In this document: positions 16,014 to 17,333 of the stretch, in pieces
Numbering within the stretch: the stretch's first letter is position 1
Layout of the letters: each line of letters opens with the position of its first letter
Assembly: GCA_934129785.1 (NCBI GenBank)
Contig: CAKOWW010000003.1
Span: 24,315 to 88,314, forward strand
Source: an uncultured Clostridia bacterium
GTDB lineage: Bacteria > Bacillota > Clostridia > TANB77 > CAG-508
Length of the DNA: 64,000 nucleotides
Direction of reading: 5' to 3'
The notes under the pieces: generated by a model
Database searches by the model: none
Seen by the model: the letters and a program-made list of their open reading frames with translations, nothing else
Told to the model about the DNA's origin: nothing
Program-made: the position numbers and the translations under genes

Positions 16014-16454
16014 ATGAATAATTTACTTATATTTTTTGCTTTACCATTAGCTACAATTATAATATCAATAGCACTACAAAAAATGCTAAAATGTCCATTT
16101 TTAGTTGCTGGAATTATTTTTGCTATATTTTTAGTTGTAACATTTGTAATAGGGAATTTAACATATTTAATAGCAACAATTGTGTATACAATAATTAGTT
16201 TTATAACAGCAGTTCTGATGTGTTTAATTGGTAAATTAATAAATAGACTAAATGAATTTGATAATCAGCAAATATCAAGTAACTGTACAAATGGAAATAA
16301 TGATGATTTATTAATAATTAATTCTAATAGTAACCAATGTGGATGTGACAATAATATTGGAAGAAATAGAGTATCTGCTAGAATAAATGTTATACCAAAT
16401 AATAATGGAAATACAGGCTCTATTTGTGGTTGTTATAAAAAGAAATTGACATAA
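16014..16454 (+). CDS. hypothetical membrane protein with Cys-rich C-terminal tail (QCGCDNN...ICGCYKK)
   Basis: 146-aa ORF with three TM segments and CGC repeats; no family recognised. Confidence 0.5.
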   Translation: MNNLLIFFALPLATIIISIALQKMLKCPFLVAGIIFAIFLVVTFVIGNLTYLIATIVYTIISFITAVLMCLIGKLINRLNEFDNQQISSNCTNGNNDDLLIINSNSNQCGCDNNIGRNRVSARINVIPNNNGNTGSICGCYKKKLT

Positions 16455-16455
16455 T

Positions 16456-16484
16456 TTGACTAATCCTCTAAAAAGTAGTATAAT
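16456..16484 (+). promoter_or_regulatory. sigmaA-type promoter TTGACT-17-TATAAT for cassette copy 1
   Basis: Perfect -10 and near-consensus -35 with a 17-nt spacer; identical sequence repeated at 16872-16900. Confidence 0.6.
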
Positions 16485-16516
16485 AAGTGTGTACTAATGA
16501 TAAGGAGGACTTTGAC

Positions 16517-16798
16517 ATGAATAAAGAAAAGACAGTACAAGAACATATAGATTATGGAAAGGAATCAACTCGACTGCTGAAAAAATATAAAGTGGAAATT
16601 CTTTTTTACGATACAGGGTTTCCTGGAAAAATAGGTATAGTAGTAAACAACAAGGATATGGATACTGCTATGCAAAGACGTATTACAGAAGCCGGATATG
16701 CATATGCAGGTGCGTATCCAAAAAAGCATGATTGTAGTTTTTTTACAATTGATGCAGAAAAGTTGATGGAAATTCAGAAGAAGTTGGAGAATCTATAA
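16517..16798 (+). CDS. small conserved hypothetical protein, paralog A (MNKEKTVQ...GKIGIVVNN...)
   Basis: ATG 8 nt after AAGGAGGA. The ORF-track start at 16487 is a GTG upstream of the SD. An identical terminator hairpin ggagccactagtttatagtggctt follows. Confidence 0.6.
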   Translation: MNKEKTVQEHIDYGKESTRLLKKYKVEILFYDTGFPGKIGIVVNNKDMDTAMQRRITEAGYAYAGAYPKKHDCSFFTIDAEKLMEIQKKLENL

Positions 16799-16871
16799 AA
16801 AAGTCCGGAGCCACTAGTTTATAGTGGCTTTTAACATGCAAAAAACTGTTATAGAAGAAAATTGACATAAT

Positions 16872-16900
16872 TTGACTAATCCTCTAAAAGGTATTATAAT
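16872..16900 (+). promoter_or_regulatory. sigmaA-type promoter TTGACT-17-TATAAT for cassette copy 2
   Basis: Copy of the 16456-16484 promoter. Confidence 0.6.
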
Positions 16901-16932
16901 AAGTGTGTACTAATGATAAGGAGGACTTTGAC

Positions 16933-17229
16933 ATGAATAAAGAAAAGACAGTACAAAAAAACAGAAAAATAGATTTGGAAGCAGAATCAGTTCGACTAAT
17001 TGGTGCATTTATTTATTGTTATTTCTATGATACAGCCATTCCAGGTAAGATAGGCATAGTAGTAAACAACAATGATCTAAAATATTCTATGGAAAAAAGG
17101 ATTACAGAGGCTGGATATGTATATGCAGGTGCGTGTCCAAAAAAGCAAGGATGTACTTTATATACAATTGATGAAGAAACGTTGGTTGAAATTCAAAGAA
17201 ATAAAAAAAATAAGTTGAAGAATCTATAA
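16933..17229 (+). CDS. small conserved hypothetical protein, paralog B
   Basis: Same 5' UTR, SD, first 8 codons and terminator as paralog A, but the internal protein sequence has diverged. Confidence 0.6.
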   Translation: MNKEKTVQKNRKIDLEAESVRLIGAFIYCYFYDTAIPGKIGIVVNNNDLKYSMEKRITEAGYVYAGACPKKQGCTLYTIDEETLVEIQRNKKNKLKNL

Positions 17230-17333
17230 AGTCCGGAGCCACTAGTTTATAGTGGCTTTTAACATGCAAAAAAACTTTACAACAAATAAAAAATATGTTA
17301 TTATATAAAAACGAAAAAAGAAAGGAAAGAAAA

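Follow-up and report, generated by a model that had tools for sequence, protein, structure and literature searches.

Polymorphic promoter-to-terminator cassettes in a fixed chromosomal slot of uncultured gut Clostridia: evidence for shuffling by recombination and a possible immunity-type role

Introduction

Two adjacent small genes of an uncultured Clostridia bacterium share their promoter, ribosome-binding site, opening codons and terminator almost to the letter, whereas the coding sequence between these ends has diverged. How the ends are kept alike, and what the encoded proteins might do, are the questions raised by this locus, which lies between the genes for a DUF2651-like membrane protein and an ArsP_2 permease in a stretch of 64,000 nucleotides (nt) of contig CAKOWW010000003.1 (assembly GCA_934129785.1), referred to below as the window. 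An earlier note on this DNA, made by inspection, had read the pair as tandem cassettes undergoing diversification of the kind seen in immunity or effector paralogues, with gene conversion homogenising the ends. The reading favoured here is that these are polymorphic, self-contained expression cassettes in a fixed slot, which are shuffled by recombination and encode immunity-type proteins; taken as a whole, the case for it is about evenly balanced. Its two components differ in strength. Homologous recombination through repeated regulatory DNA and conserved internal blocks is very probably the mechanism, to judge from the sequences compared, and an immunity-like function of the proteins is put forward only tentatively.

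Two units with shared ends and diverged interiors

Sequence reading and pairwise alignment confirmed two head-to-tail units (Table 1), and the shared promoter, Shine-Dalgarno (SD) sequence, 5' codons and terminator described in the earlier note are borne out by alignment, repeat search, promoter scan and folding. In the repeat search, 16431-16543 and 16847-16959 are 95% identical over 113 nt and the 3' blocks 16800-16845 and 17228-17273 are 100% identical over 46 nt, with 80% identity over 174 nt in the unit interiors. Both units carry a promoter-like TTGACT-17-TATAAT site (11 of 12 consensus matches), the SD sequence AAGGAGGA at 7 nt 5' of the ATG, the same eight opening codons (MNKEKTVQ) in coding sequences (CDSs) 1 and 2, and the hairpin GGAGCCACTAGTTTATAGTGGCTTTT, which folds with -15.2 kcal/mol (z = -3.0 and -3.5). 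The hairpins were missed by a simple terminator scan because the stem is trailed by four T only; the activity of promoters and terminators is predicted throughout. Open reading frames (ORFs) extended to upstream GTG codons were rejected as CDSs, as their starts precede the likely transcription start.

Across the flanks, taken from the -35 box to the ATG together with the 46-nt 3' block, the units mismatch at 2 of 116 positions, whereas the synonymous difference (pS) between the CDSs is 31.8% (0.318; binomial P = 8e-17). This contrast far exceeds chance, and the coding regions are clearly not conserved to the same degree as the DNA that frames them. An ordinary recent duplication, in which purifying selection preserved the promoters and terminators whilst the coding sequence drifted, would account for some of this, since the -35 and -10 boxes, the SD sequence and the hairpin are functionally constrained and the overall ratio of nonsynonymous to synonymous substitution (dN/dS) between the paralogues, 0.64, is below 1. 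It does not explain why spacer, 5' untranslated (5'-UTR) and post-terminator positions, which do not need to be conserved, are likewise identical between the units, or why the first nine codons are free of synonymous change.

The left edge of the repeat is informative about its origin. Unit 2 opens with a copy of the 3' end of the DUF2651-like gene (its final 24 nt, TGTTATA..AAATTGACATAA), and a unit edge inside the stop region of that gene shows that the pair is the product of a segmental tandem duplication, the left boundary of which lies within the DUF2651-like gene; the repeat takes in the end of the membrane gene only because the boundary fell there. A scan of 15900-17400 against Rfam gave no match to an RNA family, and the conserved flanks are therefore not a known riboswitch or small RNA.

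Exchange of cassettes between strains

Conspecific metagenome contigs, whose flanking genes share 95-99% of their nucleotides with those of the window, carry one or two cassettes of three types, A, B and C, so that the array is not invariant across strains and the copy count proposed in the earlier note returns one or two in each case. The window has A + B and locus L001 has A + B'. In L002 and L096-98 a chimera with the N-terminus of A and the C-terminus of B is combined with B' or B, and in L092 type A is combined with the reciprocal chimera (B N-terminus, A C-terminus). Type C stands with B' in L003-8 and L112, and C' with B in L091. A single type-C cassette makes up the array in four samples (L108-111, contigs of 6-28 kb), and a sister species (L009) has a single C-like cassette. 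Three short contigs that show the last slot only (L094, L101 and L103) were left out of the count of single-copy arrays. An apparent deletion product with two terminators (L095) was rejected, the feature being a scaffold gap of N bases.

Set against the 95-99% background, cassette CDSs are between 74% and 99% identical from strain to strain or cannot be aligned at all. Both reciprocal A/B chimeras have their breakpoint close to window position 16704, in the AGYxYAGA-coding block (MaxChi, permutation p = 0.0005), and a short A-type patch lies within the B gene of L103. Types found in slot 1 and slot 2 combine freely. Type C has no alignment with A or B at the DNA level, its profile relation to them is marginal (hhalign probability 60%, E = 8.5e-5) and it is without the residues that are invariant in the A/B family. 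It is framed by the same promoter and terminator, the start and stop codons mark almost precisely where its homology to the A cassette ends, and it can stand in the place of type A.

In other species (L104 and L074) the cassettes also have their own TTGACT-17-TATAAT promoter and hairpin, as in the window. The hairpin of L104 is nearly the same as the window's, whereas in L074 the terminator of one cassette is unrelated to that of the other. Function thus does not depend on identical flanks, a point in favour of homogenisation in the species of the window. Plain duplication is contradicted by the flank identity, by the reciprocal chimeras and by CDS replacement and copy-number change inside one species, and it was rejected as highly improbable.

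Under the favoured reading, each cassette would comprise a consensus sigma-70-type promoter, a strong SD sequence, a cytoplasmic protein of ~90 amino acids (aa) and a hairpin terminator. The promoter and terminator DNA, together with the two conserved internal blocks, behave as homology anchors. Recombination at these anchors keeps the flanks nearly identical, yields the reciprocal A/B chimeras, shifts the copy number between one and two, and allows a very distant relative, type C, to replace the whole CDS in the same frame. Both the cassette-style diversification and the gene conversion of the ends that had been suggested earlier fit well with the variation in type, chimerism and copy number within one species and one promoter/terminator frame.

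Selection and base composition

The paralogue dN/dS, a further check named in the earlier note, is uneven along the gene. In the first nine codons pS is 0 and the nonsynonymous difference (pN) 0.04; in the core YDT..GKIGIVVNN the values are 0.55 and 0.08, and in the N-terminal helix region 0.40 and 0.49. The first nine codons look homogenised, and the core, with its KIGIVVNN block, is kept by protein-level selection, with no recent conversion.

The cassettes also differ from their surroundings in composition. GC content at third codon positions (GC3) is 0.20-0.26 (0.255 in CDS 1) as against 0.09-0.14 in neighbouring genes, and an index akin to the codon adaptation index (CAI) is 0.46-0.54 as against 0.68-0.79. 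Relatives in other species reach 44% GC within loci of 28% GC, with GC3 of up to 0.45 (GC-rich family CDSs compared: window 16517-16798 and 16933-17229, L013 10449-10949, L077 10662-10913 and L104 5001-5255). The invariant Arg of the ETxRL motif uses the rare CGA and CGG codons and not the dominant AGA. Such atypical composition could reflect a horizontal or foreign origin, a recombination hotspot or GC-biased gene conversion at this place.

A clade-restricted protein family and its predicted fold

The two proteins are identical at 57 of 99 positions (58%), so that the strong internal divergence described in the earlier note stands, but its claim that only GKIGIVVNN and ITEAGY.YAGA are retained does not, as FYDT, PKK, TID and EIQ are shared as well. 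A search of 5.8 billion proteins returned 12 clusters, all metagenomic, and an exhaustive profile search of 1.84 billion representative proteins returned 18 matches, to which a broader profile added one cluster only (P0035). A scan of JGI metagenomes for the terminator found three contigs only. A scan of the species representatives in GTDB with family patterns gave no confirmed relative, and relatives were located instead by synteny with the CdaA gene. Members of the family are 81-120 aa long, two-domain fusions reach 150-168 aa, and E16, R19, G60 and Y61 are invariant across it. Fused two-domain proteins occur in eight loci (L013, L025, L031, L032, L035, L047, L060 and L066), and separate gene pairs in the window and L074.

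Structure prediction and remote homology searching, likewise suggested in the earlier note, gave a confident fold and no family. AlphaFold2 predicts type A (CDS 1) as a compact alpha-alpha-beta-beta-alpha-beta-beta-alpha domain (pLDDT 86.5) and a fused homologue as two such domains linked by a long helix (pLDDT 87.4, pTM 0.75). Foldseek comparison of the monomer and fused models with PDB and BFVD returned nothing below E = 0.01, and a sequence-profile search of PDB with the family returned noise only (E >= 0.06).

The order of the predicted secondary structure elements raises the question of whether the proteins are small DNA- or RNA-binding regulators built on a degenerate LAGLIDADG-like module (alpha-beta-beta-alpha-beta-beta-alpha), like the N-terminal domain of WhiA. 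The predicted topology is the same, and the weak Foldseek lists for both models are led by I-DmoI and I-Tsp061I (single-chain LAGLIDADG enzymes), WhiA and the C-terminal domain of MotA. All of these matches have E >= 0.01, with TM scores of 0.25-0.39 and root-mean-square deviations of 6-11 Å; the LAGLIDADG motif is missing, helix 1 does not end in an acidic residue, and no PDB chain matches the family in sequence. The resemblance was accordingly rejected as one of topology only, and a nucleic-acid-binding module of this kind is scarcely to be expected here.

Genomic setting and the DUF2651 | ArsP_2 slot

The window has a GC content of 24-33% and its genes are of housekeeping type. ComEC, a ClpC-like ATPase, HtrA, RNase HII, pyrimidine-nucleoside phosphorylase (pdp), CdaA and TruA are encoded upstream of the locus, and ArsP_2, a TraG/VirD4-like ATPase, DUF2508, BofA and GlmS downstream; the ArsP_2 gene has its own promoter-like site at 17276-17304. 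A search with CdaA found 80 species representatives, all metagenome-assembled genomes of uncultured gut Clostridia, including 'Clostridium sp. CAG:343'; the nearest CdaA relative is that of UMGS1734 (97% aa identity). The order truA, DUF2651-like gene, gap, ArsP_2 is kept in these CdaA-bearing relatives, with a gap of ~60 bp to 2.9 kb. Wherever the context is visible, the small gene lies in the slot between the DUF2651-like and ArsP_2 genes, within a single clade of gut Clostridia that are low in GC and uncultured.

Other occupants of the slot were seen in L004, L008, L023, L033, L034, L038, L039, L041, L048, L055, L059, L063 and L086. They comprise insertion sequence (IS) transposases of the DDE_Tnp_1 type (L004 and L008), an 80-aa orphan ORF on the minus strand, a 150-aa orphan, K/E-rich proteins of 320-406 aa, a pilin-like protein of 366 aa and a 220-aa ORF. 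The occupants that were scanned in other species, from the 80-aa orphan to the pilin-like protein, gave no Pfam match. The IS copies of L004 and L008 are strain-specific insertions, and the slot behaves as an insertion hotspot.

This setting invites another explanation, namely that the small proteins are the halves of a heterodimeric or pseudo-dimeric accessory or regulatory factor for the membrane protein or ArsP_2, for instance a metal(loid)-related chaperone or regulator, and that their variation is mostly neutral shuffling. The constant position between the two genes would suit such a role, as would the four invariant residues and the recurrence of a two-module state as separate genes or as fusions whose fold is confidently predicted. 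Set against this, the small gene was detected in only ~12 of the 80 sister-species loci, although ArsP_2 is kept in all of them and the DUF2651-like gene in nearly all. Strains with a single cassette exist, the types of the two slots mix freely, and type C, without the invariant residues, can replace A; the cassettes are separate transcription units, with a composition that looks foreign. An accessory factor of this kind is therefore unlikely. The same distribution, and the separate transcription units, speak against the partnership with the upstream Cys-rich membrane protein that the earlier note had raised, but some functional link between the two could conceivably exist, given their strictly conserved adjacency.

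The DUF2651-like protein itself has an Asn/Cys/Gly-rich tail, which is highly variable in length and sequence across species (146-214 aa; window and L009-L088). The protein is 61% identical to its counterpart in L009, as against 97% for CdaA, and the tail retains the motif ...ADGLSARINI(I/V)PN.... The tail could be a metal-binding extension beside a putative metal(loid) exporter.

Beyond ArsP_2 and convergent with it, a 786-aa protein (18246-20606, minus strand) combines an N-terminal membrane domain with TraG-D_C / type IV secretion coupling-protein ATPase domains. Its position is kept in all related strains and species seen, and no other type IV secretion genes lie near it. An AgrB-family protein (quorum-sensing peptide processing; 28058-28693) and the ORF of a YhgA-like Transposase_31 lie 7-11 kb downstream of the cassettes, with no evident link to them.

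Table 1. Features of the cassette locus and its borders, in window coordinates
Feature	Position	Strand	Basis
DUF2651-like membrane protein, 146 aa, Asn/Cys-rich tail	16014..16454	+	Pfam PF10852, E = 2e-07; synteny in all related loci
24-nt 3' end of DUF2651-like gene, left edge of repeat unit 1, TGTTATAAAAAGAAATTGACATAA	16431-16454	+	alignment, repeat search
Cassette unit 1: promoter, SD, type-A CDS, terminator, spacer	16431..16846	+	sequence, alignment, repeat search
Promoter 1, TTGACT-17-TATAAT, predicted	16456..16484	+	consensus scan, 11/12
SD 1, AAGGAGGA	16502-16509	+	sequence
CDS 1, type A, 93 aa	16517..16798	+	ORF list, protein alignment
Block encoding KIGIVVNN (copy-2 equivalent starts near 17050)	16631..16653	+	alignment, pN/pS
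Central homology block encoding ITEAGYxYAGAxPKK (copy-2 equivalent 17101-17146)	16682..16727	+	chimera breakpoints
Terminator-like hairpin 1, within the 46-nt block 16800-16845	16807..16832	+	repeat search, folding
Cassette unit 2, starting with the DUF2651 3'-end copy TGTTATAGAAGAAAATTGACATAA at 16847-16870	16847..17275	+	sequence, alignment, repeat search
Promoter 2, TTGACT-17-TATAAT, predicted	16872..16900	+	consensus scan
SD 2	16918-16925	+	sequence
CDS 2, type B, 98 aa	16933..17229	+	ORF list, protein alignment
Terminator-like hairpin 2	17235..17260	+	repeat search, folding
ArsP_2 / 'arsenic efflux' permease, right border of variable slot	17334..18188	+	domain and promoter scans, synteny

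What might the proteins do?

An immunity-type role is favoured, at the tentative level stated at the outset, because the proteins are small, cytoplasmic and of alpha/beta type, with predicted strong constitutive expression and hypervariable helices on a conserved core, and because tandem and fused forms, a patchy presence among species and a foreign-looking composition go with them. On this reading they may be strain-specific binding or neutralising factors, made constitutively and at a high level. Purifying selection would hold the structural core, whilst the variable helices would touch a polymorphic partner such as a competitor toxin or a phage protein. The two-module state, with two genes or a fused protein in sister species, suggests either a pseudo-dimer or two independent specificities.

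A number of observations weigh against such a role, and they leave the immunity or effector function that the earlier note had suggested no more than tentative. In Pfam, NCBIfam, PHROGs and PADLOC neither the two proteins nor 18 family members had a match; tblastn against 50,697 phage records and 72,556 plasmids gave none either; and neither sequence nor fold places the family in any described immunity family. Among the long window ORFs in 1-28.7 kb, the range to which all negatives for toxin, secretion, recombinase and prophage genes apply, no toxin, type VII secretion system (T7SS)/LXG, Rhs, bacteriocin or recombinase gene was found. The ORFs scanned are of housekeeping type and contain neither an EsaD/TelC-type toxin nor a cognate secretion system; the lone transposase-like ORF among them is the Transposase_31 gene mentioned above (24460-25479), 7 kb from the cassettes. 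The invariant E16, R19, G60 and Y61 are also compatible with a ligand or partner that is itself conserved. The multi-allele state is seen only in the window's species, with 12 A/B clusters and five type-C clusters, and every other species is seen through only one or two clusters, so that recombination between diverged paralogues may have generated part of the allele diversity as a neutral side effect. Finally, the dN/dS of 1.2-2.0 among slot-2 alleles comes from few synonymous sites and recombinant segments, so that any diversifying signal in it is only suggestive.

Several features of the locus would also suit moron-like units of phage or mobile origin which confer strain-specific protection from phages, as decoys, exclusion factors or abortive-infection sensors, and not as antitoxins. 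The units are autonomous from promoter to terminator and atypical in GC3 and codon usage, they vary strongly within the species, and the slot behaves as a hotspot, occupied in other strains and species by IS elements and by orphan genes unrelated to the units. Against such an origin, the PADLOC, PHROGs, phage and plasmid searches just described were all negative, a pattern scan of IMG/VR did not find the terminator sequence, the scanned ORFs beside the locus include no prophage genes, and the fold matches in BFVD are weak only (E >= 0.01). A moron-like origin is distinctly unlikely on this evidence.

Returning to the recombining cassettes with an immunity-type product, the most far-reaching form of that reading is that the proteins are an undescribed, clade-restricted family of protective factors, exchanged as whole cassettes by plain homologous recombination, with regulatory DNA as the anchor and the two-module forms as paired specificities. 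This version is doubtful. If true, it would mean that a housekeeping locus harbours a cassette system which works without a recombinase. Should the proteins be protective, the locus would be a sign of an unknown system of antagonism or phage resistance in a large clade of uncultured Clostridia, besides serving as a strain marker. Strain differences in gut commensals often sit in small unannotated genes, and the locus offers a compact case that is easy to type: what the slot contains (one or two cassettes of type A, B, C or chimeric) varies among strains that are otherwise 95-99% identical. More generally, repeated promoters and terminators can apparently serve as recombination anchors that move whole CDSs without a dedicated recombinase.

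A candidate frameshift in truA

Further upstream, truA (window 15200-15944) is split into ORFs of 65 and 157 aa by one extra C (...GCA CTT C GGG CAA GTT...), with the shift site at ~15375-15381 and the zero-frame stop at 15395-15397. Skipping this C restores the conserved TruA sequence ...HALGQVANFKT.... The extra C precedes a Gly codon, giving a zero-frame CGG, in all conspecific strains; the same insertion is present in ~30 of 74 scorable species representatives, where the downstream ORF is conserved, and 42 loci are in frame. CGG accounts for two of the 11,973 codons in the long ORFs of the window, both within four codons of the stop. On this pattern truA looks less like a pseudogene than like a candidate case of conserved, programmed +1 ribosomal frameshifting at a rare ('hungry') codon. 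Reading-frame maintenance is affected by the TruA-dependent pseudouridines of tRNA positions 38-40, and an autoregulatory loop acting through this effect is conceivable. A literature search on a truA frameshift found no report.

Comparison with known systems

The family and the N-terminal fold of WhiA and other LAGLIDADG proteins have in common the predicted order of secondary structure and the existence of one-domain and fused two-domain forms. They differ in that the structural matches are insignificant (TM <= 0.39) and that the motif, with its terminal acidic residue, and the catalytic residues are absent from the family.

Phage 'morons', which Hendrix, Juhala and co-workers are said to have described, are reportedly autonomous promoter-ORF-terminator units inserted between conserved genes. 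The cassettes resemble them as self-contained transcription units of distinct composition that lie between conserved genes and are present or absent among relatives; a promoter and terminator are predicted around each single ORF, with the same layout in L104 and L074, and both GC3 and the CAI-like index set the units apart from their neighbours. Unlike morons, they lie in a chromosomal housekeeping setting, have no homologue in phage collections, and are tandemly duplicated and shuffled.

Integrons and rAID-1 arrays, the latter reportedly consisting of orphan immunity genes with a repeated intergenic sequence and a recombinase, are like the locus in having variable ORFs framed by a repeated conserved non-coding sequence that includes a hairpin, and in a content that varies by strain. 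In contrast to these, no tyrosine recombinase, integrase or other site-specific recombinase is found near the cassettes among the scanned ORFs, and each cassette carries its own promoter where integron cassettes would be promoterless with attC-type sites. The unit boundary lies inside the DUF2651-like gene and the breakpoints lie inside the CDS, which points to homologous rather than site-specific recombination.

The closest parallel is offered by the T7SS immunity arrays of esaG in Staphylococcus aureus and tipC in Streptococcus, in which recombination and shifts in copy number are driven by homology blocks at the 5' end, in the centre and in the 3'/intergenic region (Garrett et al. 2022, PMC9484751). 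Like these arrays, the locus is a string of non-identical small paralogues, with high-identity nucleotide blocks at the 5' end, the centre, the 3' end and between genes, and with mosaic genes and copies gained or lost from one strain to the next; the shared chimera breakpoint and the occurrence of single and double cassettes point to the same use of homology blocks. Apart from the toxin and secretion genes missing from the scanned ORFs, the differences lie in the protein family, which is unrelated (no DUF600 or TipC match), and in copy number, which is one or two at this locus and up to 12-15 in esaG and tipC arrays. The locus also differs in that each copy is provided with its own consensus promoter and terminator, within which a barely related type can replace the whole CDS.

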